A stretch of DNA of 64,000 nt from a virus (IMGVR_UViG_3300029288_000071:128001-192000), one strand, 5' to 3'; positions 10,496 to 25,263 are shown, numbered from the stretch's first letter. Notes: a model not told the origin generated them from the letters alone. Numbers and translations: made by a program.

Positions 10496-10711
10496 TTATC
10501 CTAAAATAAGTTTTTTACTTTGAGGGGGTATTTCACATGAAAATGTAGAATGACAAGCCATGCATTTGTAAATGTATTTACCAGCTTTAAAAGTTACTTT
10601 TCCTTCTTCATCTACTAAAGTTAAAGATTTTTCTTCTCCTAAGTATTGAAACTCTCCATTACCTTTGCAACCAGGTTTAATACAAGTTATTTTTCTTTTT
10701 GGTTCATTCAT
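10496..10711 (-). CDS. Small Cys-containing (zinc-ribbon-like) protein
   Basis: CIKPGC...YKCMACH. Confidence 0.7.
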   Translation of the reverse strand: MNEPKRKITCIKPGCKGNGEFQYLGEEKSLTLVDEEGKVTFKAGKYIYKCMACHSTFSCEIPPQSKKLILG

Positions 10712-11367
10712 TGTAGTAATTTTTTTATTTCTGCTGCATTTTCTTTTATTATTCTTTTAGCATCTGCAGCGGTATCTATTTTATATCTTATTAGTTTGAA
10801 TCCATTTTTCTCAGCAATTTCATTTTTAAGTTTGTCATTTTCTTTGCTTTCTGGTAAAGAATGCCAATAGTTACTGTCACATTCAATTAAAATCTTTTTA
10901 TTAGGAACTTTATAGTCAAAACATCTGCCATCAATCCAAATTTGTGATTCTAAAATTATCTTAAATTTTTGGTAAACTCCATCACCAAATGCTGCTTCAG
11001 ATTTTGAAATTGGATTTGTAAAATTTCCATTTTTCAGTCTTAATTTTGCTGCTTCACTCATCTTTTTCCGAGACTCAATTGAATGTTTTCTTCCCTTGAG
11101 TGCTAGGGATATTTTATTTCTTTTTTGATCTGATCTAGCTGATGTTTGCCATTTTTCAGAATTAGCTCTTCCTATTCTAGCTTTTTCAATAGTTTTAGAA
11201 TTAATTACCCACCCTGAATGATGATTAGGTATTTTTCTTCCCTTAAGAGCTATTTTATTTGCTTTGCCTATTTTACTTTTAGCTTCTTCAGTATGCCAAG
11301 GTTTTCCATTACATTTTCTTGTCAAAACAGCTTTTTGACTAGATTCTTTTGAGCGAATCATTTTCAT
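10708..11367 (-). CDS. NUMOD3 + DUF559/Vsr-like endonuclease
   Basis: HTEEAKSKIG, GRKHSIESRKKMS; SKSE, FDY, LIECDSNYWH, END..K. Confidence 0.85.
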   Translation of the reverse strand: MKMIRSKESSQKAVLTRKCNGKPWHTEEAKSKIGKANKIALKGRKIPNHHSGWVINSKTIEKARIGRANSEKWQTSARSDQKRNKISLALKGRKHSIESRKKMSEAAKLRLKNGNFTNPISKSEAAFGDGVYQKFKIILESQIWIDGRCFDYKVPNKKILIECDSNYWHSLPESKENDKLKNEIAEKNGFKLIRYKIDTAADAKRIIKENAAEIKKLLQ

Positions 11368-11626
11368 CCCAAAAAAGCTTATGTAATTTATTTACTAAAG
11401 GAGTACGATCCACTTGGAACTCTTCATCGTTTTGAGTGACTACAAAATCTTTCAAAACTGCATAAGAAGTCATATCAGTAAACTCAGACCTATATACTTC
11501 TTCTTTATATGGTATTTCATTTTTTTTGAATTCTTCATTAAATTTATCTGCCCATGACATATCAATTTCTTCAAATTTCTGAAGTTGATTGTCATCTGAT
11601 AATAATGCTAATACTAATTTACTCAT
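11339..11626 (-). CDS. Hypothetical acidic protein
   Basis: ORF in operon. Confidence 0.7.
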   Translation of the reverse strand: MSKLVLALLSDDNQLQKFEEIDMSWADKFNEEFKKNEIPYKEEVYRSEFTDMTSYAVLKDFVVTQNDEEFQVDRTPLVNKLHKLFWDENDSLKRI

Positions 11627-11651: not shown

Positions 11652-12050
11652 TCATATCTTTAAAATTATTTCTCGATCTACTTCTTTTCTGATTTCTTCA
11701 CTAAGAGCTTTAATAAATTCTGCTTCAGTATCAACTCCTGTAAATGTTTGTAATTCTCCAATTTCAACTGTCCACTTTGTTTTTAGTTTTCGTGGTTTAC
11801 TTGCTTTTTCTGTTTTCTTAGCTTCTTCATCTATTTCATATCCTATTTTCTTCATCAAAGCTTTTATTGGATCTTTAATACTTGATGAAATTGACCTTGT
11901 TTTTGCATTACAGTTATATTTGCCACACACATTACAATAACCATCTTTATCAAAATCATGTTTTCCATTAATTAATGTACCATCCCAATCAGGATAAAGA
12001 CAATCAAAAGCTTCTTTAGGATAAATACGCCCATTCTTATTCGGAGTCAT
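11652..12050 (-). CDS. Small chimeric protein: prohead-protease-like motif + IGY tag + gp23-like capsid fragment
   Basis: NKNGRIYPKE; DPIKALMKKIGY; KPRKLKTKWTVE...GVDTEAE...LSEEI..EVDREII. Confidence 0.8.
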   Translation of the reverse strand: MTPNKNGRIYPKEAFDCLYPDWDGTLINGKHDFDKDGYCNVCGKYNCNAKTRSISSSIKDPIKALMKKIGYEIDEEAKKTEKASKPRKLKTKWTVEIGELQTFTGVDTEAEFIKALSEEIRKEVDREIILKI

Positions 12051-12261
12051 AACCTATTTTTCTCATCAGTCTTTTTATTGGATCAATTATTATTTTTTGT
12101 TCTGCAATTAAAGTTGGAGATACATACAATGGAGCGTAAGGAGCCCAAACATATCCTTGTTCTAAAAATGATTTTCCTTTATGACCTACTAGAAAATAAT
12201 CTTTTTTAACTTTAACTGCAAAAAAATCTTTAGTTTCTATCACATCTTCTTTATTTATCAT
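12037..12261 (-). CDS. Small protein: gp23-like C-terminal capsid fragment + IGY tag
   Basis: DYFLVGHKGKSFLEQGYVWAPYAPL; DPIKRLMRKIGY. Confidence 0.8.
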   Translation of the reverse strand: MINKEDVIETKDFFAVKVKKDYFLVGHKGKSFLEQGYVWAPYAPLYVSPTLIAEQKIIIDPIKRLMRKIGYDSE

Positions 12262-12484
12262 AACCTATTTTCTGCATTAGTTTATCTACTTTAGTGGGTA
12301 CTTCATAGCCAATTTTTTTCATCAATTTTTCTATAGGACTTAAAAGAGAATTGTCAGAATAAATTTGAATATCTGTCCAAAATCCTGTTCCTATTTCAGA
12401 TGATACCCACTTTCCATCTGTTCCAGTTATTGAAATATTTAAAAAACCAGGAGCTTGTTTTATTGCTGTAGTGGAATTTCGCAT
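12251..12484 (-). CDS. Small protein with two IGY tags
   Basis: SPIEKLMKKIGY and VDKLMQKIGY. Confidence 0.75.
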   Translation of the reverse strand: MRNSTTAIKQAPGFLNISITGTDGKWVSSEIGTGFWTDIQIYSDNSLLSPIEKLMKKIGYEVPTKVDKLMQKIGYDK

Positions 12485-14463
12485 ACGTCGTTATTACAAT
12501 ATTTATCGGTTTCGGCTTCTTCACCTTTGATTTTTGCAAATTGAGGTTTCTTCAATCCTTTGGATAATTCTTTAAAAGTTTTTTCATCTATTTCTTCATA
12601 GGGCATTTGTGCATATGCACCTTTTGGAGTGTTTGGAAGAAAGCTGACACCTTTGAGTTGATATTGAAAGTAATTTAAAGCATATTCTATTTGATTGCCT
12701 TCTGTTTCAGGGTCAAATCTTATTGTAGCTGACACTTGATTATCTGTCCAATATTTTTGCAGAAATGCTGCTAAAGACAATTGTTCCCACATTGAAACTT
12801 GCTTTACAGAACGAATTTCTCCAATATCGATTGGAATTGATACAATTACTGTATTAACTTCTTTTGATGCTGGTTCAATATGATATCCTGCTTTTTCTAA
12901 TGGTTTAAGTAATTGACTATTTTGAGAAATTCTAATTCTACGAATATAAAAACGAGATTCAGGATAATGCATACCAGGAGTTGCACCAGCTAACAAACTA
13001 GTAGTTCCTGAAGGCTTAACAGAAGTACATTTTTTAGATTTTGGAATAGCTAACCAATCAGAATATACTTCATCCCATTTCTGAATTTCATCATAACCTT
13101 TTTGACACCATTCTTTAAATTCATTTATTCCTCTTTTTTCAATTATTTGAGCAATTCCTGACATAGAACATCCAATTCTTCTATTTCTAAGCATAACTCT
13201 ATTAGATTCTGCCCAATGTGTTTTACCCAAAGTAACAGTTTTAGCATAGAGATAAGCAAATTTGAGAGTTCTTAAAAAATCTTCTAAATTTTCATGATTG
13301 TTTGGAAATGTTTCAACTAATGTACAGAGTTCGTACGACTCCAATGATTGTTCTACACAAGGATTAGGTCCAGCCACTCTTTTATCTTTCCAATCAGGAC
13401 CATTATTTATTCTAGAATATGCTTTCATATTTTCTAACCAAACATATCCTGGTTCTCCATTTTTAGCAGTTTGAGTTGCTACTTTTTTGTAATTCATTCC
13501 TAAATCAGCAAATATAGAATTATTAGAAGTCCAACCATACCCTGCTCTATGTTTTGAACTACCAATATAATCTTTCTTTTCATCATCCCAATGATAATCT
13601 TTTAATTTAAGATATTCATCTGATTTATAATCACCTACAGATATTTGAGCACTTCTTCTAACATTACCTGAAACTACACAAACACCAATATGATTCATTA
13701 AATCTACTATAGCTGTTGTTGAAATTTGCTGGCCAATTTCTCTATTTAAAGTTAATCTAATATTTTTATGAAGATCAACTAAAGGATCAGCACCTGAAGA
13801 AATTCCCCCGAATGTTTTAATCGGCTCTCCTGCTTTTCGTATGTCTGAATAATCAAATTCTATATCCCCAGTTCCTAAAAAATATGCATCTAAAAGTAAT
13901 CTTAAAGATTCAACCCAGCCTTCTCTACTATCTGGAATTTTAAAAGTTTCTATTGATCTCTTTTTATTTGGTCCTTTTACTTCAATTAAACCAACCCCTT
14001 TTGTATCAAATCCTACACCAACACCTAACATTGACATATCCATCATAAATAAAAATGGTTTTGAGGGTTCTTCTTTTATATTTTCTGTTGAAATGAACGA
14101 GCAGTTATTGAGTGCTGCATAAAGATGTTTTTCTTCTGTAATTAAAGATCCCATCCCCCAAATACCTCTTCCAGGTGGAAGGAATTTCATATTAAACATT
14201 CGATCATACATTTCTTGAGCAGACTTTTGAGCTTGATATGCATTCCAACCCAAGCCATTTTCATCAATATGTCTTTTTTGCATATTATAAGTTCCATTTA
14301 CTACTCTTTGACAAGTTTCCCACCATTGCTCATTTGAACCATCTGATTTTATTCTTGAATATGTTCTTAAATAAGTAATTTCTCCTAAACCGTTAAATCC
14401 AAAGGGTGGTTTTTTATCTTCATACTGTTCTATAAACCTTTCTGATAATCTAAATTTATCCAA
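12460..14463 (-). CDS. nrdJ: Class II (adenosylcobalamin) ribonucleoside-triphosphate reductase
   Basis: RTYSR, PPGRG, LNNC, GNVRRSA, NPCVEQ, KPSGT, C-terminal YCNNDVC. Confidence 0.95.
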   Translation of the reverse strand: MDKFRLSERFIEQYEDKKPPFGFNGLGEITYLRTYSRIKSDGSNEQWWETCQRVVNGTYNMQKRHIDENGLGWNAYQAQKSAQEMYDRMFNMKFLPPGRGIWGMGSLITEEKHLYAALNNCSFISTENIKEEPSKPFLFMMDMSMLGVGVGFDTKGVGLIEVKGPNKKRSIETFKIPDSREGWVESLRLLLDAYFLGTGDIEFDYSDIRKAGEPIKTFGGISSGADPLVDLHKNIRLTLNREIGQQISTTAIVDLMNHIGVCVVSGNVRRSAQISVGDYKSDEYLKLKDYHWDDEKKDYIGSSKHRAGYGWTSNNSIFADLGMNYKKVATQTAKNGEPGYVWLENMKAYSRINNGPDWKDKRVAGPNPCVEQSLESYELCTLVETFPNNHENLEDFLRTLKFAYLYAKTVTLGKTHWAESNRVMLRNRRIGCSMSGIAQIIEKRGINEFKEWCQKGYDEIQKWDEVYSDWLAIPKSKKCTSVKPSGTTSLLAGATPGMHYPESRFYIRRIRISQNSQLLKPLEKAGYHIEPASKEVNTVIVSIPIDIGEIRSVKQVSMWEQLSLAAFLQKYWTDNQVSATIRFDPETEGNQIEYALNYFQYQLKGVSFLPNTPKGAYAQMPYEEIDEKTFKELSKGLKKPQFAKIKGEEAETDKYCNNDVCEIPLQQ

Positions 14464-14770
14464 TCTGTTTCTCCGGTTGATATATTCTTTTCATTAGTGT
14501 TTCAATTATTGCGTCAATATTCAAACTGTCTTTTATTTCTTTATTTAAGTTTTCTATTTTTTCTATTTCTTCTTTATCCATAACTACAAAGTGAGGATAG
14601 AGACACTCAACTCTGTTTATAAAATTTAAATCATTTATAATTGGCATATAAATTAATCTAATCCCATCTTTCTTTAATTGATCTGCCATTTCTTTAAGAT
14701 TATCAACAACTCTTTCAGCATTTTCTGGAGAAAATTTAGTCATGTTTATATACATTGCCAATATTATCAT
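14456..14770 (-). CDS. Small protein with a portal(gp20)-like motif and a degenerate IGY tag
   Basis: MYINMTKFSPENAERVV; IETLMKRIY. Confidence 0.6.
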   Translation of the reverse strand: MIILAMYINMTKFSPENAERVVDNLKEMADQLKKDGIRLIYMPIINDLNFINRVECLYPHFVVMDKEEIEKIENLNKEIKDSLNIDAIIETLMKRIYQPEKQIG

Positions 14771-14772
14771 TT

Positions 14773-15096
14773 TTAAACTCCATCTAAATCACCATATAAA
14801 TCTTTTGTTGTTAAGTTTTTTGCTTGTTCTTTTATTTCTTTAGCTCGCTCTCTTAAAGATTCAGTTGAATCTTTTTTCCCATTTCCTTCAGGAAGAATTG
14901 TATTATTAGTCCAACCTTCACCTTTCATTTGAACCATTTGATTACTCATGATTTTAGCTTTATTTTTTGACTTACAAGCTGGACATTCTGCTTCTGCTAA
15001 AAATTTAGCTTCATTTTCTTCTGCTTCTTTAGCACTCATCCAAAATTCATCAAAAATAGCTTTACAATCTTGACATTGGTATTCGTAAATTGGCAT
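14773..15096 (-). CDS. FmdB-family zinc-ribbon protein
   Basis: MPIYEYQCQDC...CPAC...MKGEGW. Confidence 0.9.
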   Translation of the reverse strand: MPIYEYQCQDCKAIFDEFWMSAKEAEENEAKFLAEAECPACKSKNKAKIMSNQMVQMKGEGWTNNTILPEGNGKKDSTESLRERAKEIKEQAKNLTTKDLYGDLDGV

Positions 15097-15105
15097 AATT
15101 TTCTC

Positions 15106-15771
15106 CTATAATTCGTCAAAAATAATTGGTACTTCTTTTCTCATAATTGATAGTGCTTGATTTGCTAAATCTCTCTTTTGTGGATGTGCTGCAGCAGACG
15201 TTCTTAATTTAAAGAAATGTCTCCATTCACGAAAATTAGCAGTCATTACTAATTCTGTTTTTAAAGAATTAGGAAGAAGATCTCTTGCTTCTTGTGGTTT
15301 TTCACCATACTCAATTGCTCTTAAATAATGTTCTTGACATCGTTCAATGCCTGTGAACCAGTTTCCAAACTTGAATCTGTCTTCTTCAGTTATTCCTATC
15401 CAATCATTTGTTTCAGTAGCTAAATAGATTTTATAAAATCTTACTGGAAGAATTACTGTAATTTCATTACCATACTTATCTTTACTATAGTTGCAATATC
15501 TAGTGCTTTCTTGACTATAAGCAGCAAGTCGATGTCTAACTATTTCATGTGTTACTCCTCTATCAGTAATAAATCGAAATGTAGCAACTGCATGTTCAAG
15601 AACTGATTCATGTTTTTTATCTGGATTTAATAACATTTTTATAAAGTCTTTTGATGACTCTGGTGTTATTAAATTCTCTGATTTGTAACAAACTCTTCCA
15701 CATTTTTCAATAAACTGAAGAGCATTAGGTGTTATGAATTCTAATGTAGCTGATTGTTTGATTATTCTCAT
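15106..15771 (-). CDS. thyX: FAD-dependent thymidylate synthase
   Basis: HESVLEH, EIVRHR...SQESTRY, ARDLLP, NFREWRHFFKLR, AHPQ. Confidence 0.95.
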   Translation of the reverse strand: MRIIKQSATLEFITPNALQFIEKCGRVCYKSENLITPESSKDFIKMLLNPDKKHESVLEHAVATFRFITDRGVTHEIVRHRLAAYSQESTRYCNYSKDKYGNEITVILPVRFYKIYLATETNDWIGITEEDRFKFGNWFTGIERCQEHYLRAIEYGEKPQEARDLLPNSLKTELVMTANFREWRHFFKLRTSAAAHPQKRDLANQALSIMRKEVPIIFDEL

Positions 15772-15998
15772 TTTCTTCTTTCGGGATTCAATACAATGTT
15801 ATTAATTCCAGCTATTGAACTACGTTTTTTATATTCTTCTTCAATATATTTTGTTGCTATGATTCTTACAGAATTTCTATATTGCTCATAGATTCGTCCA
15901 GCAATTTCATGTCTTTTTTGTTCATCTATATTATAGTCTCTGAGAACTACTTCTACAATTTGTTTTAAATCTATTACATCTGCTAAAGTTTTATTCAT
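15768..15998 (-). CDS. Hypothetical protein
   Basis: ATGA overlaps on both sides. Confidence 0.7.
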   Translation of the reverse strand: MNKTLADVIDLKQIVEVVLRDYNIDEQKRHEIAGRIYEQYRNSVRIIATKYIEEEYKKRSSIAGINNIVLNPERRK

Positions 15999-17401
15999 TT
16001 TTGTTCTTCTTTACTTCCATTTTCTTTGGATTTTTTAAATTCTTCATACTTTTTCTTATTATGATTGTTAGTATCAATGCTTACACTATTCAGACTAGAT
16101 ATTGCTGCATTTAATTCATCCATATTCTCAAAAGGTTTTTGAGTTTCAATTTTATAGTTTTTAAGATTCATTATAATAGGAATAACTATACCATCTTTTC
16201 CTGCTCTATTTTTTGCAATAAATAATCTACCTGTATTTTTCATTCTATCTTCCATTTTTCTTGAAAGAGTAATGATTACATCTGATACTGCAGCTTTTGC
16301 AAATGATTCAGAAATAGATTCAAGACTAATAATATCATTATTTGCTCCAGAACGATTTACTTGACTTGCAGTCCAAATAGGTATTTTTAATTCTCCTGCT
16401 AAACCTCTTAAATCTTCATAAATTCCTTCAAGTTCAAATCTTTTTTGATCATACTTCTGTGCGGGTTTTAACAAATCAGCATAGTCAATAATTAATTCAT
16501 CAGGGACAAAACCAATTTGATGCATTTTGTTTATGTGTAGTTTAAGATGATTAATTGTAGCTTTTTTTGTTGGATAAAATTTTATCATCAAATTATCTTT
16601 AATATTCAATTTTTTCAATTTCATTTTTACAACATCACTCATATTTGGAATATCTTCTTGAGCTATGCCTGTGAACATTGTATCATATCTTAATCCAACT
16701 TGATGTTCATAAAGTTCTAAAGTATAATGAATTACTTTAAGTTTTTGTTGAACAGCATTTTTTGCTATAGTGCAGAGAATCCAAGACTTACCAAAACCAG
16801 GGCCTGAAATAACTACTCCTAATTCTCCTTTTGATAACCCTCCATTCAAAAGCTCATCTAAATGAACTAATCCTGTTGGTATTGGCATTCTTTTCATTAA
16901 ATTTATCCTATTTTCTAAAGCAAAATCTTCCCAATAATTATGACCGATGTTTGATTCTTCACCAGCCTTTAAAGCTTCACCAACTATTTTGTAGATGTCA
17001 TCATATTTACCTTTTTCCCAACAGTCAATAGAAGTATAAAGAGCAGTTTTCATTTTTTGATTTCTGCAAAATTTGATAGCTTCATCTTTTATAAACTTTG
17101 TATCATTTACTGCAGATTTTTTTATAGTTTTAATGATTTCATGAATTTGCATTTTCATGATTTCATCGCACTCAAACTGAGACAAAGATACTTCTAAGTT
17201 ATCTAATGTTGGAGGTGTCTTGTATTTTTCAAAATATTCTTGAATCTTCTTATAAATTGTCTCATGTGGTTTTGAATCAAAAAAGCTTAACTCAAGAATA
17301 TCAAAAATACGTTCAAAAAATTTTGTATCAATAAGTAATGATTGAATTACTTTAGTTTGAAAGTGGCTACCAAAGAGAGAAAAATCTTGTTTTTGACTCA
17401 T
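15995..17401 (-). CDS. dnaB: DnaB/gp41-like replicative helicase
   Basis: GPGFGKS, IIDYADLL, WTASQVNR, AKNRAG; start moved to MSQKQ at 17401 (TAATG overlap). Confidence 0.92.
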   Translation of the reverse strand: MSQKQDFSLFGSHFQTKVIQSLLIDTKFFERIFDILELSFFDSKPHETIYKKIQEYFEKYKTPPTLDNLEVSLSQFECDEIMKMQIHEIIKTIKKSAVNDTKFIKDEAIKFCRNQKMKTALYTSIDCWEKGKYDDIYKIVGEALKAGEESNIGHNYWEDFALENRINLMKRMPIPTGLVHLDELLNGGLSKGELGVVISGPGFGKSWILCTIAKNAVQQKLKVIHYTLELYEHQVGLRYDTMFTGIAQEDIPNMSDVVKMKLKKLNIKDNLMIKFYPTKKATINHLKLHINKMHQIGFVPDELIIDYADLLKPAQKYDQKRFELEGIYEDLRGLAGELKIPIWTASQVNRSGANNDIISLESISESFAKAAVSDVIITLSRKMEDRMKNTGRLFIAKNRAGKDGIVIPIIMNLKNYKIETQKPFENMDELNAAISSLNSVSIDTNNHNKKKYEEFKKSKENGSKEEQK

Positions 17402-18090
17402 TATCTTTTCTCCCATAAAATAATAAAATCGCATGATAAATGATTACAGATTTCTGTTTCTCTATCTAAATCTTTAAAAACCTGCTTGTCATGTCTTTTT
17501 TCATACACTTCATAAACAGTATTTGTTTCTAGACAGTAACCATCAACAACATAACCTAATTTTTTTATGTGATATTGTCTCTGAATTTTACAATTATCTC
17601 TATGCTCTTGTAAATCTAATAGTTGTTTTTCAATTTTTCCTATATTAAAATATGGTTTTGAATTACCATTTATGATTCTATTTAGCATTGAAACTCTCAT
17701 TTTTCTTTTAGTTTCAGAAGAATGATGCTTCCCAAGCATAGCTTTATTGATACACTTATCTCTATTTTCTTTGATTTTAAACCTTTCTTTAATTTTTAAT
17801 CGAGTTTCTTGTGTTACTGGAAATTCCTTATATCGCTTCTTTTGAGCCAAACTACCAATCTCTCTTTGATTTTGTGTCCAAATGCTTCCTAAGTTTCTTG
17901 GTTTTAATTTATTGCTTTCAGCAATTCTTTTTCTGCCTTCTATGGTTTTTGATTTACCTCCTATACTTCCTGAACATTTTTTACATTTTGTATTCAAGTC
18001 TATTGCTCTTTGTAATAAATGCTTAGTTTTGTATGTCTGTAAATTGCCACATTGAGAACAGTTTTTACTAAAATTTTCAGGTAAAATCAT
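17401..18090 (-). CDS. Putative homing endonuclease (Zn ribbon, NUMOD3, PD-(D/E)xK-like)
   Basis: CSQC..CKKC, GKHHSSETKRKM, GYVVDGYC..TNTVYEVYE..H. Confidence 0.75.
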   Translation of the reverse strand: MILPENFSKNCSQCGNLQTYKTKHLLQRAIDLNTKCKKCSGSIGGKSKTIEGRKRIAESNKLKPRNLGSIWTQNQREIGSLAQKKRYKEFPVTQETRLKIKERFKIKENRDKCINKAMLGKHHSSETKRKMRVSMLNRIINGNSKPYFNIGKIEKQLLDLQEHRDNCKIQRQYHIKKLGYVVDGYCLETNTVYEVYEKRHDKQVFKDLDRETEICNHLSCDFIILWEKR

Positions 18091-18370
18091 TGATTTGTTT
18101 TCTAGCTCTGTGTTTTGTAATTAATGCTCGGATAAAAAGAATAATAGGAAATGATATTAAACAAGTCAAAAATAAAAATATAATTATAAGTCCATGAAAA
18201 AAATCTTTAATAGACTTTTTAAATTCTTCTAAAAATTGTTTCAAAAAACTATTACAATCAAATATCATGTTTTCCCAAATAGACATTTCATTTTCATTTT
18301 TTGTGCAATTTCTAATCTTGTCATTATCAATAATAAGATTAGTTCTATCTATTCTAAATGGATTTTTCAT
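18077..18370 (-). CDS. Hypothetical membrane protein
   Basis: C-terminal hydrophobic stretch. Confidence 0.65.
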   Translation of the reverse strand: MKNPFRIDRTNLIIDNDKIRNCTKNENEMSIWENMIFDCNSFLKQFLEEFKKSIKDFFHGLIIIFLFLTCLISFPIILFIRALITKHRARKQINDFT

Positions 18371-19397
18371 ATGAATTTAATGGAGCAAAAATTTGATTCC
18401 AACTATCAAAATTTTGTATTTGTTTAAAAGCTGAATCTTGCATAAATAACAATCTCAACTGAAAAGGTTTAAAAACAGGATTTTGATTTAGTGCACTTTT
18501 AACTTTTTCTAATCCCTCTACACTAAAAGTATGTTCAAGTAATTGCATCACCTGCCAATTCTTTTTCAACTTTTCTTGTTCATCTAAAATTACTTTGTAA
18601 AATTTACTACCCTTAATATTTGCTTGACAATGCTCAAATACTCTATCAAGATTTGTAGGAGTTGAATCTATTAAAAATGGGAATAGTTTATTTATAGTTT
18701 TTAAACCAATTCCTTTAATTCCTGGAACATTATCAGAAGAATCTCCTTGAAGAGTTTTAATCATTATCCAATTTTTTGGATAACACTTATATTCTTTAAT
18801 CATGTGTTCAACGTCGATTATTTCTTTTTTAATAGGGCGATAAACTGATACTTTATCTGTAACTAATTGGAAGTAATCTTTATCAGAACTAACTATAATT
18901 TTGTGTTGATCAAGCCATAAATACTGACTTATATAACCTATCACATCATCTGCTTCCATTAATTCTACTTCAATTTGATAAACAGGTAAAGTTTCAAGAT
19001 ATTCTTTTACTCGATAAAGCTGTTTTTTAAAACTTTCCCATTCTGCTTCAGGAGTTTCCCATTGAAAAGTTCTATTCAAAGATCTTTTTATATCTCTTCC
19101 TTGTTTATATTCAGCAAGTATTTCTTTTCTTTTTCTTGATGAGTGTTTTCCTTCCCAACAAAAAACAACTTTAGTAGGATGAAATAGTTCTACAATAGAC
19201 TTTACAGATTGCATCATACCCCACATCCCACCAACATGGTTTCCTGATCCATTTGCTAAATTAAGTACTGCAAACGAACGAATAAACATGTTCATTGAGT
19301 CAATTAAAAGAATTCTTTGAGAACCTTTTTCTTCAATTTCAACTTCTAAAAGTTTATCTTTTTGAATTGCAGCTATTTGGTTTTCTACAGTTTCCAT
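18354..19397 (-). CDS. 5'-3' exonuclease / flap endonuclease (T4 RNase H-like)
   Basis: LLIDSMN, YKQGR, EADDVI, SSDKDYFQL, GDSSDNVPGIKGIGLKT. Confidence 0.93.
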   Translation of the reverse strand: METVENQIAAIQKDKLLEVEIEEKGSQRILLIDSMNMFIRSFAVLNLANGSGNHVGGMWGMMQSVKSIVELFHPTKVVFCWEGKHSSRKRKEILAEYKQGRDIKRSLNRTFQWETPEAEWESFKKQLYRVKEYLETLPVYQIEVELMEADDVIGYISQYLWLDQHKIIVSSDKDYFQLVTDKVSVYRPIKKEIIDVEHMIKEYKCYPKNWIMIKTLQGDSSDNVPGIKGIGLKTINKLFPFLIDSTPTNLDRVFEHCQANIKGSKFYKVILDEQEKLKKNWQVMQLLEHTFSVEGLEKVKSALNQNPVFKPFQLRLLFMQDSAFKQIQNFDSWNQIFAPLNSYEKSI

Positions 19398-19630
19398 TAA
19401 GTTGTGCTTTCAGTAATAATTTTCTTAATTATACGGCCTTGTTTGTCATATTCATACTCTTCAACAACTTTTTTAGGAGTTATTAGAGGCTGAATTGGTT
19501 GAATTGGATTGATTGGAGGCCATGTTATAGTTATATTGTTAGGTTTTTGATTTCCAAAATATTTGATATATTCTGAACAGCTTTTACAAGCTTCAGTTCC
19601 TGCTAATGAACAACAACATACTAAAGGCAT
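19397..19630 (-). CDS. Small Cys-rich hypothetical protein
   Basis: CCCSLAGTEACKSC. Confidence 0.7.
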   Translation of the reverse strand: MPLVCCCSLAGTEACKSCSEYIKYFGNQKPNNITITWPPINPIQPIQPLITPKKVVEEYEYDKQGRIIKKIITESTT

Positions 19631-19631
19631 T

Positions 19632-20306
19632 TTATTTTTCCTCTTTAAAATAATCTACTATTCCTTTCACAAAAGTTAAAGAGATCACTGGGAGTATTCC
19701 GCTAACCATAAACATTACAAATCGTAATGACCAAGGTGAAGTACTTAATGCTAGTAAATCTAAAATTGACTTAAGTGATTCTGGTGTTGTATTTACATAT
19801 GCATGATACATATTTCCAATAACTTGTAAGGCACTCAATACAAAGAATATAGACCATATTGTAAATTTGTTTAATTTATTAAGTGTAACTAAAGCAACAA
19901 GTGAAGACATAGAAGCTAATTCAATAGATACTGAAATAGCTATCGCCATTGCATAACTATTAGAAGTAGCAAATAAAGTAATTAAATGCATCATAGAAAT
20001 TAATGAAATAGCTAGAGGGGGTATTATAAATGCAAAGAAAATAATTTTTTCTCGTTTTGTTTTGAAAAATGAACTATTTTCTTCTTTTTTTATTTCATTT
20101 TTTTGTTCATATTGTAGTTTTTCATCAGGATATGCTAAAGTTGCTGATTGATTTTTATCTTCTGGAACATTTAAAACTCCTAATACGTCACTTTCTTTTG
20201 CTTTTATTGATTCTGGTTGTGTTGGCATAATATTTTTAATGTTTTCTTCTAAGAATTCAACGTTGTTGCTTCCTCTTTCTTGGTTTAATCCTATTTTGCT
20301 TATCAT
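19632..20306 (-). CDS. Multi-pass membrane protein
   Basis: About four hydrophobic segments in the C-terminal two thirds. Confidence 0.8.
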   Translation of the reverse strand: MISKIGLNQERGSNNVEFLEENIKNIMPTQPESIKAKESDVLGVLNVPEDKNQSATLAYPDEKLQYEQKNEIKKEENSSFFKTKREKIIFFAFIIPPLAISLISMMHLITLFATSNSYAMAIAISVSIELASMSSLVALVTLNKLNKFTIWSIFFVLSALQVIGNMYHAYVNTTPESLKSILDLLALSTSPWSLRFVMFMVSGILPVISLTFVKGIVDYFKEEK

Positions 20307-20661
20307 TTGTTTTTCTTAGATAGTGGGGTAAATCATCGTCTTCTAATTTGTTAATTTCTTGAAAATGCATCAATGCCATAATGTTAAACATTACTCCTGC
20401 AAGATGATCTTCATCTTCATAACCTGCTAAAAACTTATTTAAATGTCTACTAGCAGAATCAACAAATCTATGAAATGGGATCCCGCCTTTTTCCCAATTC
20501 CTATCATAATATTTTATAGCTCCTTTTTCCATCCACTTTGCTATTCGGTCAATAGCAAATGGAGAAACTAAATCATATCTACCTTTTCCAATAGCGGGTT
20601 CTCTAAGAGCTTTACCTTTTCCGAAAACAATTCTTTTTCCTGTATCTGTCATTCCATCCAT
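20257..20661 (-). CDS. dATP/dGTP diphosphohydrolase domain protein (DUF5664-like)
   Basis: GKGRYDL, GAIKY..RNWEKG, SASRHL, EDHLA...FN. Confidence 0.88.
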   Translation of the reverse strand: MDGMTDTGKRIVFGKGKALREPAIGKGRYDLVSPFAIDRIAKWMEKGAIKYYDRNWEKGGIPFHRFVDSASRHLNKFLAGYEDEDHLAGVMFNIMALMHFQEINKLEDDDLPHYLRKTNDKQNRIKPRKRKQQR

Positions 20662-21869
20662 TAAGAAACATCTCCTTCTACTACTTCTTCAGGTATTTCT
20701 AATTCATCAAAAGAAGGTGTACAATTACTATAGTCAATTGAATTTGCATCAATAATCATTTTTCTTACATATTCACGAATTTCAGGAGGAGTAATAATCT
20801 TTCTCCATTCATCTTTTTTGAATTCAACTTGAATGATATTTGGTTCATCTCCTTCTTTTGTATTTACATAATCTGGAAGATTTATAAGATATTTTTGTTT
20901 TGTCGGTCTTTCAATTTTTCCTTTAAGAACTAAATTGTCTAACCAACTAGATTCATCATCAATTCCTTTGTCAAAATAAATATCAAAAGTACACTTTCTT
21001 TGTGGTGGAGCAATTTTATTTTTCTTTGTTTGAGCTTGAACCGTTACTCCAATAACTATGTCATCTTTTTTAATATCTGTTATTTTTGTTAGACGAACTC
21101 TAACTGAAGAATGAAAAGGAACTGCATTACCACCAGGAGCAGTCCATTTATCACCAAAACTAACACCAATATTTGATCTTAACTGATTTGTAAAAAGTAA
21201 TAAAACATCTTCTCTTCCAATAAATTGCGTAACTTTTCTCATAGCTTTAGAAATAGCTAGAGCTTTTGCTGTACCATAACCTTCTTTATCAAAAGAGCCT
21301 TCTAATTCTTCAGTTGAAGGTGTTGCAGCTATTGAATCCCAAACAATAGTAATAAAATCTTTACTTCCTAGTTCTCTAATCTTTTTAATTGTAGATTCAA
21401 TAGTGTCAAATACTTTTTCAACTGTTCCTGCAGATACATAAACTAATTTATGAACTCCTGCTTTTTCTGCTTCTTTTCCAACTTTTAATCCCATTTTAAC
21501 AAGTAAACTAATATCAGTTGAATTTTCTTCATCAAAAAGAATAGGAATTCCTCCCATTTTTTGTGTATTAATTAAAACTTGATTTGCAACTAATGATTTT
21601 CCAGCAGAAGTATTACCAGTTAATTCAACTAATCTACGAACTGGCATTCCTCCACCTTGTTGCCATTTACCATTTGTAATTATTGTATCAAGAATTGTAC
21701 TACCTGTAGAGATGAGAGTTGTTATATCAGTTGGTGTTCCTTGTTCACCTAATAGATAAGCTCTATCACCAATACTTTTTGACATATTTTTTATTAATGC
21801 ATCAGATAAAGAAGATTTGTCACCCAAATTACTCAACGCATCTTCTGCTGAAGTTACTCGTTTTGCCAT
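20661..21869 (-). CDS. recA: RecA/UvsX recombinase
   Basis: ISTGSTILD, GNTSAGKS, IVWDSIAA, NQLR, PGGNAVPFHSSVRV, KNKIAPP. Confidence 0.95.
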   Translation of the reverse strand: MAKRVTSAEDALSNLGDKSSLSDALIKNMSKSIGDRAYLLGEQGTPTDITTLISTGSTILDTIITNGKWQQGGGMPVRRLVELTGNTSAGKSLVANQVLINTQKMGGIPILFDEENSTDISLLVKMGLKVGKEAEKAGVHKLVYVSAGTVEKVFDTIESTIKKIRELGSKDFITIVWDSIAATPSTEELEGSFDKEGYGTAKALAISKAMRKVTQFIGREDVLLLFTNQLRSNIGVSFGDKWTAPGGNAVPFHSSVRVRLTKITDIKKDDIVIGVTVQAQTKKNKIAPPQRKCTFDIYFDKGIDDESSWLDNLVLKGKIERPTKQKYLINLPDYVNTKEGDEPNIIQVEFKKDEWRKIITPPEIREYVRKMIIDANSIDYSNCTPSFDELEIPEEVVEGDVS

Positions 21870-21889
21870 ATTATTTTCCTGAAAAAATT

Positions 21890-21954
21890 AAGCTAGGAAG
21901 AAACAAAATATGAATTATTGTCAAATTAATTCACTTTTGAATCTTCACTAGCTT
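21890..21954 (-). promoter_or_regulatory. Long imperfect stem-loop between ssb and recA (processing site/attenuator)
   Basis: Nested arms AAGCTAG/CTAGCTT, GAAGA/TCTTC, CAAAA/TTTTG, TGAATTA/TAATTCA; T-tract follows on the minus strand. Confidence 0.7.
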
Positions 21955-21960
21955 CTAGAA

Positions 21961-22749
21961 TTATTTATTTATGTTTTGGTTTTTTATTGCATCAAACATT
22001 TCACTGAGCTCACTTAAATCTTCTGAAGTTCCTTCATCTTCTGAAGCTTCAGGATTTGTTATAGGAGCTTGAACTTGATCTCCTTCAGCAACAAATGCAT
22101 CTAATGCATTCTTTATTTCTTCAGGTGTCAGTTTGTTAAATGCATCAAAAACATTAGGACAGTTTTTAATTAGATCAGTTGCAACTTTAGCATCAGAACT
22201 TAATGCTGAAGGATTTGCTGCAGGTCTAACTTGAACTTGTCCATAAATAAATTGAGGTGTTGGGGCTGTTGCCATAACCTTTATATCTCTTCCTTTTATA
22301 GGATCACTTAAATCACCATATTCTGGATCAATAAATAATTGAGCAATTGAAGTATAAGTATTTTTACCTATTCCCCAAAATTTCACACCTTCTGTTTCTT
22401 GACCTCTAACTAAAACAGGAATGTAAACTCTCAAGCGAGATTTGAGTCTTTTCCAAAGAGCAAAATTTTTGTCATTTTTCTCTTGGACTAAATATGCACC
22501 ATATTCACATATAGCACATTTTTCAGCAGGATTTATAGAACGAGGACAAATAATTGATTTCACAGGTCCTACATCATAGTGAAAATATAATTCATTAAAA
22601 GGATCAGGACCATGTTTATATGGAACAATTCTTAATTGAACTTCCTGACCTCGAGGTGGTCTAAAAATTAATGTTTGTTTTTTTGTTTGATTAGTCATTG
22701 CGTCAAGTTTTGCTTTGACTGAACTCATTACCTTGTTGTCGATTGGCAT
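21961..22749 (-). CDS. gp32-like single-stranded DNA-binding protein
   Basis: LRIVP, FHY, CP..CAICE, GVKFWG, YGDLSDPIKGRDI, acidic tail. Confidence 0.88.
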   Translation of the reverse strand: MPIDNKVMSSVKAKLDAMTNQTKKQTLIFRPPRGQEVQLRIVPYKHGPDPFNELYFHYDVGPVKSIICPRSINPAEKCAICEYGAYLVQEKNDKNFALWKRLKSRLRVYIPVLVRGQETEGVKFWGIGKNTYTSIAQLFIDPEYGDLSDPIKGRDIKVMATAPTPQFIYGQVQVRPAANPSALSSDAKVATDLIKNCPNVFDAFNKLTPEEIKNALDAFVAEGDQVQAPITNPEASEDEGTSEDLSELSEMFDAIKNQNINK

Positions 22750-22864
22750 TGAGATTTTCTCCGTAGAATGTAACGTATTTTTACTAAGGATATTGAGGTA
22801 CTACGCTACTAGGGTTGATTTCTATTTAATTACTAATTTGATGTAGAACCGATTGGTAGGTATA

Positions 22865-22892
22865 AATATAATTCAAATATTTTCTAAGTAAA
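22865..22892 (-). promoter_or_regulatory. Promoter-like TTTACT-N16-TATATT upstream of ssb
   Basis: Variant of the recurring motif. Confidence 0.45.
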
Positions 22893-23735
22893 CAATTGTT
22901 TGTAAAATGCGTAATTATTTTTAAAAAAATTATTTTCTTTTACTTTAGAAAACTTATCAAGCGCTCGTTTATTAAAAATAATTCCATGAATATCTAAACC
23001 ACTTTTTGAAGTTCTTAAGTAAGTAATTAAGTTGTATTTTTGACTTAACTTTTTAAAAATTTCTATTTGCATTAAAATATAATGATACTTAGAAGTATCA
23101 ATTAGTTCTTGATTAGGCGTTGCAAAAATAAAAACATCTGCTTTTGAAAGTTTTAAAATCATTTCTTCAGGATTGCTAACGTGCTCTAATGTATGAAAAC
23201 AAGTGCATATTGATTTTTCTGGAAATTTCGTAAATTCATCAGGATGTTTATAAGTAATCCCAACTCCTGCCATTAAGTCTCTAAAATCTTTAACTTCAAC
23301 TAAAATTTTTTCTTTACAGTCAGGTAAAAGTGCTAAAAATGGAGAAGATCCTCCACCAAAATCAATTACTGTATCATCTTTTTCTATTATTGAATTTATA
23401 AAATTAGCATATTCAACATCAAATCCGGGATTTTCATAAGGAGGATTCAATCTAACAGCCCCATAACCTGGAGCATCTGTGATAATTGTTTTGTTGTCTT
23501 CTCTATCACACTTAAGTTTTATTCTTTCTTCATAATTTTCTTTTAGAAACTTAACTTTAGCTTTAAATGATTCAGGAGTATTAAATCCATCATAACCTGC
23601 TAAGTCAGTATATGATTCATAATTAGTATTTTCCCAATTGCATCTTTTTCTTAAGATTCGATAAAACTCATCATCTGAATTTCTTGCAAGTTTGATTTCA
23701 TCTGAAAATATTTTTACTTCTTTAAATTCTTCCAT
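22884..23735 (-). CDS. Class I SAM-dependent methyltransferase
   Basis: VIDFGGG, FHTLEHVSNP, ATPN. Confidence 0.75.
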   Translation of the reverse strand: MEEFKEVKIFSDEIKLARNSDDEFYRILRKRCNWENTNYESYTDLAGYDGFNTPESFKAKVKFLKENYEERIKLKCDREDNKTIITDAPGYGAVRLNPPYENPGFDVEYANFINSIIEKDDTVIDFGGGSSPFLALLPDCKEKILVEVKDFRDLMAGVGITYKHPDEFTKFPEKSICTCFHTLEHVSNPEEMILKLSKADVFIFATPNQELIDTSKYHYILMQIEIFKKLSQKYNLITYLRTSKSGLDIHGIIFNKRALDKFSKVKENNFFKNNYAFYKQLFT

Positions 23736-24259
23736 TAATATCCGATTCTTTTCATTAAAACTTCGATAGGATCTATAATTTTTGGGATAAAGTTTGGTGG
23801 AGATACTTTTAAATTATTACTACCCATATTAAGTGGCATTATTCCTTCAGAAAATTCTGTTTCAGCATATCTAGCTATAATTCCCCTTCTAGGAATAAAA
23901 CTAGGATCAATAATCGGTACAGTTGGCATTAATGTCAGAAAATAAAATATTTTATTTGTTGCTATTTTATTTAATTCATCAGTAACTACATCAAATAATT
24001 GATCAAGTATTTCTCTTTTAGAATAATCAAGTGAATCAACAAATGAACATCTTAATTTTCTACTTGCACAAATTAAAGGTTTTTGTATTAGTTCTAAATC
24101 TTCTAAAATAGTTATTACAAAAGTAGGACTAGGTGCTCGATCATATTTAAACCTAACTTTATCAGGATTATTGTGAAAATAAATAAAAAGATTGTCAGTA
24201 AATTCAATGTTATTTATTCCTGAAAAATTAACTATTTTATTTGGTTGATAATCTATCAT
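23735..24259 (-). CDS. Protein with gp23-like capsid fragments + C-terminal IGY tag
   Basis: ASRKLRCSF; DPSFIPRRGIIARYA; DPIEVLMKRIGY. Confidence 0.72.
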   Translation of the reverse strand: MIDYQPNKIVNFSGINNIEFTDNLFIYFHNNPDKVRFKYDRAPSPTFVITILEDLELIQKPLICASRKLRCSFVDSLDYSKREILDQLFDVVTDELNKIATNKIFYFLTLMPTVPIIDPSFIPRRGIIARYAETEFSEGIMPLNMGSNNLKVSPPNFIPKIIDPIEVLMKRIGY

Positions 24260-24498
24260 TGAATATTTTGAGTATTAGCAGTTGAAGTACTAACAATGAT
24301 TCCACTATTTAGATTTATCATATCCCTTGTTTCAACTATTTTATTACATTCTTCACATACTTTAACTTGTCTAAAAGTAGAATGTCCAGGTGCCCACCAT
24401 TCATCCATCCAGTCAGAAATCTTTTCATGTTTACATTCTTCTTGTAAGTCTTCAATTTCTTTTTTATGCTTTGCTAATAGATCTTCAATCTTTGACAT
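24256..24498 (-). CDS. Small Cys/His protein
   Basis: CKHE...VCEEC. Confidence 0.7.
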   Translation of the reverse strand: MSKIEDLLAKHKKEIEDLQEECKHEKISDWMDEWWAPGHSTFRQVKVCEECNKIVETRDMINLNSGIIVSTSTANTQNIQ

Positions 24499-24799
24499 TT
24501 GGTTCTCCTCTCATGATTGCTAAAACTTCTATTTCTCTCATGATTAAATGTTTCTTTTCATCAAGCATTATTTCTGTTCCCGTATACTTATTGAAAAGAA
24601 CTTTATCACCAACTTTTACACTCAATGGAAGAATTACTTGAGGATTCCCAAGTAATTGACCTGGTCCTACAGCAACTACAGTTCCAGTATTTTTTGATTC
24701 TCTAGCACTAAGAGGAATAACTAATCCTGATGGAGTTGTCTCATTTTCAGCATCAGGTAATACAATTATTTTATCATAGAGTGGTTCTAATGTTATCAT
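24485..24799 (-). CDS. groES: Co-chaperonin GroES
   Basis: PLYDKI, TPSGLVIP, GTVVAVGPG, VKVGDKVLFNKYTGTE; start reset to ATG 24799 with AAGGA upstream. Confidence 0.95.
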   Translation of the reverse strand: MITLEPLYDKIIVLPDAENETTPSGLVIPLSARESKNTGTVVAVGPGQLLGNPQVILPLSVKVGDKVLFNKYTGTEIMLDEKKHLIMREIEVLAIMRGEPNVKD

Positions 24800-24807
24800 A
24801 CTTTTCC

Positions 24808-25263
24808 TTATATTTGAAAAATATCTGGTGGAATTAATACTAATTCTATGCGTGGTTTTGCTTCTGAAAACATCTGCTTCGATATTTTGAAATCTTCTTG
24901 CCAACGAGGATTATCATTAAAAGGTGCAACACACCTAGCTATTCCTGCTTGAATAACTAAACCAGCACAAGGAGAACAAGACATGAATGGATAAGTATAT
25001 AGCGTACATCCTGTTAAATCTCTTTTAGCTGCTATAATTGCATTTCGTTCACAATGAACAATCATTTTATACTTTAAATCTCTGTTATTCAATCTTTCTT
25101 CAGTATCTAAAACATTTCTTGGAAGTCCATTAAATCCTAAACTTATCACGTAATTATTTTGATCTACAATTACTGCTCCTGTTTTTGTGCTGGGATCTTT
25201 AGACCAATTAGACGCAAATCTAGCTAATTCAAGATAACGAATATCCCATTTTAATTGATTCAT
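24808..25263 (-). CDS. dCMP deaminase
   Basis: WSKDPSTKTGAVI, GFNG.P, HCERNAI, SCSPC. Confidence 0.93.
   Translation of the reverse strand: MNQLKWDIRYLELARFASNWSKDPSTKTGAVIVDQNNYVISLGFNGLPRNVLDTEERLNNRDLKYKMIVHCERNAIIAAKRDLTGCTLYTYPFMSCSPCAGLVIQAGIARCVAPFNDNPRWQEDFKISKQMFSEAKPRIELVLIPPDIFQI

Follow-up and report, generated by a model that had tools for sequence, protein, structure and literature searches.

A stretch of 64,000 nucleotides of viral DNA, referred to here as the window (bases 128001-192000 of IMGVR_UViG_3300029288_000071, a 207,030-bp IMG/VR virus record of an uncultured phage), contains a set of small open reading frames (ORFs) that share copies of one 12-residue peptide, the tag. 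Sequence comparisons across the window, the whole phage genome and related phages support a family of small accessory proteins, specific to this lineage and fast-evolving, each made of a variable cargo and this shared handle. A subset of the cargoes is, judging from alignments, a reshuffled mosaic of the best-conserved motifs in proteins of head morphogenesis, found in ORF1, ORF2 and ORF5 of the window, in a tagged ORF at genome position 67924-68190, and in others among the relatives. The repertoire comprises the N-arm, E-loop strand, spine helix and C-terminal strands from the major capsid protein (MCP, gp23), the N-terminal strand of the prohead protease (gp21) and one motif of the portal protein. 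A modular 'epitope plus common handle' architecture, as proposed in a first-pass annotation of the window, is supported by these data and extended by the conservation of the tag at the protein level, the reordering of fragments in relatives and the evidence for selection. As for function, we tentatively rank first a role in biological conflict, in which mimic cargo would act as bait and the handle would dock to a partner.

A shared peptide tag on 27 small proteins

The tag follows the consensus [D/E]-P-I-x-x-L-M-K-K-[I/M]-G-Y-[D/E] or, more broadly, [D/E]-x-[I/V]-x-x-[L/I]-M-x-[K/R]-[I/M]-G-Y-[D/E], in which Met and Gly are invariant and Tyr is almost so. Five clear copies lie in four intact, tightly coupled ORFs on the minus strand of the window. 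In ORF1 (11652..12050, 132 aa) the copy DPIKALMKKIGY (11838..11873) is internal and is followed by 61 further residues, while the copy of ORF2 (12037..12261, 74 aa), DPIKRLMRKIGY (12049..12084), is C-terminal. ORF3 (12251..12484, 77 aa) carries two tags in tandem, SPIEKLMKKIGY (12305..12340) and the shorter VDKLMQKIGY (12260..12289). In ORF5 (23735..24259, 174 aa) the stop codon comes immediately after DPIEVLMKRIGY (23738..23773); the copy of a relative reads DPIEVIMRRMGYDI. The first-pass annotation had assigned a tag to a fifth ORF as well, the minus-strand ORF4 (14456..14770, 104 aa), and this assignment is doubtful: ETLMKRIY lacks the Gly and falls below the threshold of the tag profile (8.4 bits, E = 0.22). 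A relative keeps (V)LMEKIY at the same position, and LMKRIY is at best a divergent tag variant.

Searching the 207-kb genome with the tag profile, a check that the annotation had suggested, revealed a family larger than it had noted. Twenty-seven ORFs of 61-197 aa match at E ≤ 0.004, with the next match at E = 0.18. They represent ~13% of the ~207 small genes of the phage, and all 27 are on the coding (minus) strand. The tag lies at most 10 residues from the C terminus in 22 of the 27, near the N terminus in two and internally in a few, ORF3 being the tandem case. The other parts of the tagged ORFs had been described as mutually unrelated, and this holds for the cargoes of all 27. Tagged genes cluster in tandem within regions of rapid gene turnover.

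Codon choice within the tag varies freely, with Gly encoded 13 times by GGA and 13 times by GGT, Leu by six codons, Ile by three, and Lys also varying. Since synonymous codons differ among copies, the tag is conserved as a peptide and not as a DNA element. A DNA-level element, a slippery site or an RNA was ruled out on this basis, together with the lack of an Rfam match and a fold z-score of -0.33 for the ORF5 core. No Pfam family covering the tag was found, nor was a conserved L/I-x-E protease site flanking it among the tag copies. The spacing of its hydrophobic residues (i, i+3, i+4, i+7) and its Gly-Tyr cap make the tag look like a short basic amphipathic helix of three turns; AlphaFold2 places a helix at the tag of ORF5 with very low confidence. 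The invariant Met, Gly and Tyr of the alignment point to one specific protein partner rather than general membrane binding.

An origin of the tag in gp23 was also considered. By eye, it is collinear with 'TPRRAVMTRYAK' of gp23 in ORF2 and ORF5 and resembles the 'EMGF' that precedes the E-loop in cyanophage MCPs. This origin is ruled out by the tag profile, which does not score in gp23 or the large ORFs, and by an hhalign probability of 0.2%.

Outside this genome the tag is rare. Among 1.84 billion representative proteins, the tag profile gave nine matches at E ≤ 1e-3, all of them to the phage's own ORFs or to ORF3 homologs of related phages. The exact back-translated tag pattern is found at six loci in IMG/VR, two of which are genuine and come from a single metagenome; one of the two has six tagged ORFs in 13 kb. 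Eighty IMG/VR loci retrieved via the ribonucleotide reductase (RNR) gene (~65% identity) have no tag and belong to other phages that share the RNR only. On the strength of these searches, the tag is limited to this phage and a few close relatives.

Head-protein fragments in tagged ORFs

ORF1 is composed of a gp21-like N-terminal motif, a Cys/His cluster, the internal tag and a gp23-like fragment. The latter (aa 84-129; 11664..11801) is 45% identical to residues 319-365 of the phage's own gp23 (E = 1e-8), and the ORF matches the Pfam Gp23 family (PF07068) with 33.8 bits (cut-off 24.4, E = 3.3e-8). From capsid structures of T4 and HK97, we take this part of gp23 to be the second E-loop strand (RKLKTKWT in ORF1) followed by the spine helix. 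ORF2 joins a degenerate gp21-like N terminus and gp23 C-terminal strands to its tag. Its fragment GHKG...GYVWAPYAPLYVSPT (aa 21-55; 12097..12201) is 57% identical to own gp23 499-533 (E = 6e-11), and the Pfam Gp23 match of the ORF, at 21.2 bits (E = 2e-4), is slightly under the cut-off of 24.4. For this fragment, no full-length protein closer than the phage's own gp23 was found.

ORF5 contains a gp23 C-terminal motif, possibly together with an E-loop strand and a spine-like helix, ahead of the tag. The motif (...PTVPIIDPSFIPRRGIIARYAE; aa 107-133; 23861..23941) matches gp23 520-548, by BLASTP to own gp23 520-547 (E = 1e-3) and by hhalign (E = 4.2e-5, 70% probability, 27 columns), a kinship detected by profile-profile comparison and not by the Pfam Gp23 profile. 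A portal fragment had also been proposed for the window; no tagged ORF there matches Portal_T4, and ORF5 turned out to carry this piece of the gp23 C terminus. AlphaFold2 gave no confident fold for ORF5 from a three-sequence alignment (mean predicted local distance difference test score 31), and an ESM Atlas search with it returned low-feature eukaryotic matches only. A complex prediction for the ORF1 family with the ORF2 family scored 0.00, an outcome that bears on binding in neither direction.

The gp21-like motif of ORF1 (TPNKNGRIYPKEAFD; 12003..12047) agrees with residues 43-57 of the phage's own gp21 at 9 of 15 positions, a match that is weak alone (E = 0.39). It gains support because the ORF2-like gene of a relative (L098) has a clearer copy, which matches positions 55-77 of Pfam Peptidase_S77 (E = 1.5e-3). 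The start of ORF2 is a degenerate copy of the same motif, as seen in the alignment. The earlier claim of gp21 fragments holds for a motif of 15-23 residues and not for the protease: it lacks the segments with the catalytic His and Ser, the motif does not amount to the protease domain of Peptidase_S77, and a six-frame search of this family yielded the true gp21 alone.

ORF3, the start of which overlaps the end of the RNR gene, has a hypervariable middle ahead of its two tags. Its homologs (P0006, P0008, P0010 and that of L098) retain the initial ~8 residues and the two tags, and nothing else. Searches of Pfam and PHROGs and searches for gp21 and portal similarity found no head-protein similarity in ORF3 and no head-protein fragment in ORF4. 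Head-protein parts are consequently present in three of the five window ORFs (11652-12050, 12037-12261 and 23735-24259) and not in the four that had been claimed, since 12251-12484 and 14456-14770 gave no match.

None of the gp23-like ORFs contains a complete HK97-fold Gp23 domain (~376 profile positions), the matches covering positions 141-194 and 299-331 only. When the fragments were compared with full-length head genes, as the annotation had recommended, they were nearest to the phage's own gp23 or that of its own clade, and known phage MCPs, including those of T4 and cyanophages, were all less similar. This closeness to own-clade gp23 indicates that the fragments are old derivatives within the lineage.

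Tag and head-protein fragments coincide across the genome. Outside the window, the tagged ORF at 67924-68190 has a 30-residue portal motif with three weak, concordant matches (0.018 by BLAST to the phage's own portal, 0.004 for Pfam Portal_T4 and 0.013 for PHROG 213). A six-frame Gp23 search of the genome recovered the real gene, ORF1 and ORF2 only. In a control that compared 207 small with 81 large ORFs, tagged ORFs were the only ones to resemble a distant large gene strongly; the three strong matches of untagged ORFs were adjacent paralogs. Every detectable head-protein fragment outside the true head genes is in a tagged ORF. If fragments were placed at random among the small genes, the chance that four of four would be tagged is, by our arithmetic, ~(27/207)^4 = 3e-4.

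Selection, shuffling and exchange

The ratio of nonsynonymous to synonymous substitution rates (dN/dS) of ORF1, ORF2, ORF3 and ORF5 between relatives lies at 0.33-0.44, and a single pair of ORF1 genes reaches 0.74. Bootstrap upper bounds were below 1 in the seven pairs tested, the 0.74 pair being outside those seven. Neighbouring genes have dN/dS values of 0.05-0.18, and a nearby zinc-ribbon ORF has 0.26. Across relatives, the gp23-like segment of ORF2 is 63-67% identical and its tag 58-67%, compared with 11-22% for the linker, and the alignable parts of ORF1 are the tag and the spine helix. These values mark the ORFs as real, fast-evolving genes in which cargo and handle are both constrained, and purifying selection implies that the ORFs are not debris. 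Indeed, the annotation had already cited intact frames, diverged codons and coupled starts against pseudogene debris, and each of these observations stands, with the dN/dS check that it called for giving no sign of neutral evolution.

Three other assemblies share the order RNR, ORF3, (ORF2), ORF1, a conserved 95-aa ORF and the zinc-ribbon ORF, with the modules rearranged. The ORF1-like gene of L093 has E-loop strands, the tag and the spine helix. In L098, the ORF2-like gene consists of the gp21 motif, gp23 C-terminal strands and the tag, and the ORF1-like gene of E-loop, tag and spine helix. L094 has the gp21 motif, a gp23 N-arm motif and an E-loop strand (Pfam Gp23, 1.9e-7), followed by a frame break and then by the tag and the spine helix. 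This break, which splits the ORF1-like gene (L094:345-793) just ahead of the tag on a 1.3-kb contig, may be a true disruption or else an error of assembly. The N-arm motif of the relatives reads V-R-R..L.A.D..S-V-Q-P-M and corresponds to the Gol region of T4 gp23.

Cargo turnover with retention of the tag is seen at a syntenic slot (genome 67352-68924 and L099:7040-8472), where both phages have three tagged ORFs with unrelated cargoes. Here the slot holds a portal fragment with a tag, and in L099 it holds a gp23 N-arm fragment with a tag. The ORF5 family, which is 70-92% identical across three samples, additionally shows exchange. The ORF5 core (window 23780-24200, 420 bp) has 95-100% DNA identity to L004, including ~270 bases without a difference, and a synonymous divergence (dS) of 0.12, compared with 0.9-2.7 in neighbouring genes; flanking genes have 65-90% DNA identity. 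Such a contrast indicates a very recent exchange of the cassette between lineages.

A possible bait function and its alternatives

From what is known of T4 and HK97, we assume that the retained motifs (N-arm, E-loop, spine helix and P-domain strands) are inter-subunit contacts. Cargoes of this kind could be molecular mimics that bind whatever normally binds head proteins. They might capture a host sensor that recognises capsid proteins, or else head proteins, whether those of a relative infecting the same cell or the phage's own. Through the handle, the captured target would be brought to a common partner or withheld from its normal role. We rank this conflict-related bait function first because the mimic segments are under selection, modules are reshuffled, cargo turns over with the tag kept, and a recent sweep has occurred; we hold it as a possibility falling somewhat short of even chances. 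The binding, the partner and the way in which the proteins would act, as decoys or by interference, are all proposed.

Several considerations weigh against a bait function. First, no cargo related to the virion was detected in ~22 of the 27 tagged ORFs, which makes the tag a general handle and not a label of head fragments. The annotation had tied its proposal to a tag found chiefly on virion-related proteins, and the reverse is largely the case. Second, sensors such as Avs recognise folds, and pieces of 30-50 residues are too short to recreate these. With EF-Tu, the Gol region of gp23 activates the Lit protease, and one would expect a Gol-like peptide to set off a Lit-type system and not to block it. 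The tag profile also gave no match in gp23 or any large phage ORF and hence indicates no partner, and scans for the T4 late-promoter motif, sigma-70 promoters and terminators found none above chance and hence give no information on the timing of expression. Finally, only the most conserved motifs stay recognisable in the long term, so the 'conserved epitope' pattern could in part be a detection bias.

A more specific form of the bait function, which we regard as improbable, is a phage kit for targeted capture or proteolysis. Head-protein mimics would serve as bait, and the shared helix would deliver the binder to one reader, plausibly the phage's own FtsH-like protease. What is captured could be an immune receptor of the host that detects head proteins, or a competing phage's own head proteins. 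The candidate reader, proposed by analogy, is a soluble FtsH-like protease of 646 aa encoded on the minus strand at genome 109448-111388 (L108:1-1941), ~17 kb before the start of the window. Its AAA domain contains Walker A and B motifs and is joined by a ClpB_D2-small lid and a Peptidase_M41 domain with HELGH, and no membrane segment is apparent. At least 1662 homologs were found at 43-53% identity, nearly all of 630-660 aa and many on contigs of 100-345 kb. No close relative of the protease was found in IMG/VR, and there was no match in catalogued phage genomes. The loci of homologs with 49-53% identity have no LMKKIGY tag in the 13 kb sampled. A phage ClpP or a ClpX-type ATPase was considered as tag reader and discarded, both being absent from the genome. 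As a separate observation, an unrelated 168-kb contig with a homolog of the same protease family has two adjacent small ORFs that end in KLKFKKK (L111:15435-15889), and these ends may be another shared tail tag.

The second-ranked explanation, which we consider unlikely but the strongest of the rivals, holds that the tag serves as a general address or as a signal for turnover (a degron, an adaptor-binding peptide for an AAA+ protease, or a localisation signal) and that the head pieces are by-products of illegitimate recombination without mimicry. Most tagged ORFs, with their unrelated cargo lacking matches, would fit this, as would the tandem clusters in high-turnover regions, the apparently intact AAA+/M41 protease of the phage, and the homing-endonuclease-like genes that adjoin the locus and vary in presence among relatives. 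By-products of recombination are harder to reconcile with gp23-like segments that are the best-conserved parts of ORF2 and ORF1 at dS 0.7-1.6, with the recurrence of the same motifs in different combinations and at different loci, and with the confinement of strong fragments of distant genes to tagged ORFs. For an address read by the protease in particular, the tag-free 13 kb sampled at loci of 53%-identical proteases is a further objection.

Two other explanations have a low probability in our estimation. In one, the tag is a capsid-targeting label that loads proteins into the prohead for injection, with head-like cargo aiding the association with core or shell. T4-type phages (IPI-III and Alt) are the only known case of unrelated small proteins with a common short terminal peptide. 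It is also the case that all ORFs with head fragments are tagged. This label would, however, be C-terminal and not N-terminal, no conserved L/I-x-E site adjoins it, the genes lie amid replication and nucleotide metabolism outside structural modules, and 27 cargo types far exceed the known precedent.

In the other, scarcely a better prospect, the mini-proteins regulate or chaperone the assembly of the phage's own head by capping gp23 interfaces until scaffold and portal are ready, with the tag binding a chaperone. The assumed role of the retained motifs as subunit contacts is in favour of this, and a GroES-like ORF (24485-24904) is two genes upstream of ORF5, an arrangement kept in a relative. 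An essential assembly factor should be stable, yet module order, presence and cargo all differ among close relatives, dN/dS is 3-8x that of neighbouring genes, and the genes are again outside structural modules. The weakest explanation, that the ORFs are functionless, decaying remnants of duplicated head genes or annotation artefacts, could draw on the L094 frame break and the missing confident fold of ORF5 and is very improbable given intact, tightly coupled frames in four independent assemblies, dN/dS significantly below 1, fragments that are non-collinear with gp23 and interleaved with a conserved tag, and an ORF5 family kept at 70-92% identity in three samples.

Comparison with known systems

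Judged on sequence features, the closest established precedent is the capsid-targeting sequence (CTS) of the T4 proteins IPI, IPII, IPIII and Alt, whose defining N-terminal position and protease site are not shared by the tag. The likeness lies in a T4-type phage, unrelated fast-evolving small proteins with one short terminal peptide, and cargo genes in hyperplastic regions. The T4 CTS differs in being an N-terminal peptide of ~10 residues that ends in a gp21 cleavage motif and loads the prohead, whereas the tag, found on 27 genes, is placed at the C terminus (in rare cases internally or twice) and has no L/I-x-E next to it.

With the T4-type gp23/gp24 family (PF07068, HK97 fold), the relation is one of descent, as ORF1, ORF2 and ORF5 hold true homologs of gp23 segments. 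Unlike gp23, these are non-collinear pieces of 25-50 residues joined to a foreign tag and a gp21 motif, and can build neither an HK97 fold nor a capsid. SspB-type adaptors and degrons of AAA+ proteases offer an analogy, in that they combine a variable binding part with a short C-terminal peptide and the phage has its own AAA+/M41 protease, but in sequence the tag resembles none of the known tethering peptides or degrons. MCP homologs by which satellites redirect the capsid assembly of their helper (for example Ccm of cos-type phage-inducible chromosomal islands) and the external scaffold Sid of P4 are likewise capsid-derived or capsid-binding proteins in conflicts of mobile elements. Ccm and Sid, however, have a full-length fold and an established function in assembly, and the proteins described here are short motif patchworks. 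In Rickettsia palindromic elements (RPEs), one short peptide module similarly recurs across unrelated ORFs of a genome. RPEs are palindromic DNA repeats inserted in frame, whereas the tag is conserved at the amino-acid level only and sits at protein ends; an RPE-like DNA repeat or palindromic structure was not found in it, as synonymous positions vary and there is no structure or Rfam signal.

Genomic setting

The phage is a distant T4-type phage whose genome has a GC content of 29% and an estimated completeness of 91%. Its gp23 (572 aa) is 34-40% identical to the MCPs of Flavobacterium phage immuto, Microcystis phage Mel-JY01, Rhodothermus phage RM378 and an uncultured 484-kb phage. Nearly all of the ~311 genes are on the minus strand, and ~207 encode fewer than 200 aa. 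The public runs that contain the genome are landfill metagenomes, all of them DNA, with no RNA run listed among them.

Neighbours of the tagged-ORF locus include genes for RNR, ThyX, a DnaB-like helicase, RNase H, UvsX, gp32, a GroES-like protein and dCMP deaminase. The true head genes are distant from it, with gp23 at genome 11.2-12.9 kb (plus strand), the portal gene at 97.3-99.2 kb and gp21 at 102.8-103.4 kb. These positions confirm the earlier statement that the tagged ORFs of the window sit among replication and nucleotide-metabolism genes, far from structural genes.

Next to ORF1, on the same strand, is the untagged 95-aa ORF (11339..11626). It has a dN/dS of 0.09-0.18, is always directly downstream of an ORF1-type gene in relatives, and may be functionally linked to the tagged cluster. 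It is followed on the minus strand by a homing-endonuclease-like ORF (10708..11367) with NUMOD3 and a DUF559/MTES_1575 nuclease, which is present in L094 and absent from L093 and L098. A second such ORF, with NUMOD3 repeats and a DUF559/MTES_1575 nuclease, is found at window 17401-18090. At the RNR locus, the closest relative has an RNR-like gene of 810 aa (L098:5491-7923) where the window has an RNR of 667 aa (12460-14463), which suggests in-situ replacement by a non-orthologous enzyme.

Implications

Avs families are known that bind the major capsid protein (PMC13581612). Bacterial immune receptors more generally sense capsid, portal and other core phage proteins. Small proteins under selection that are quickly reshuffled, reproduce the invariant motifs of such core proteins and have a docking peptide in common would be a candidate answer to sensors that are aimed at proteins a phage cannot change. 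An equally possible use would be as a weapon against related phages. In the literature, which does cover capsid-sensing defences, no description of phage-encoded capsid-fragment decoys or mimics was found. The tag is a defined 12-residue peptide that could be used to find its own reader, and the cargoes are a natural series of bait variants for assays of defence and assembly. If true and general, a kit for targeted capture or proteolysis would represent an undescribed strategy of counter-defence or of competition between phages.

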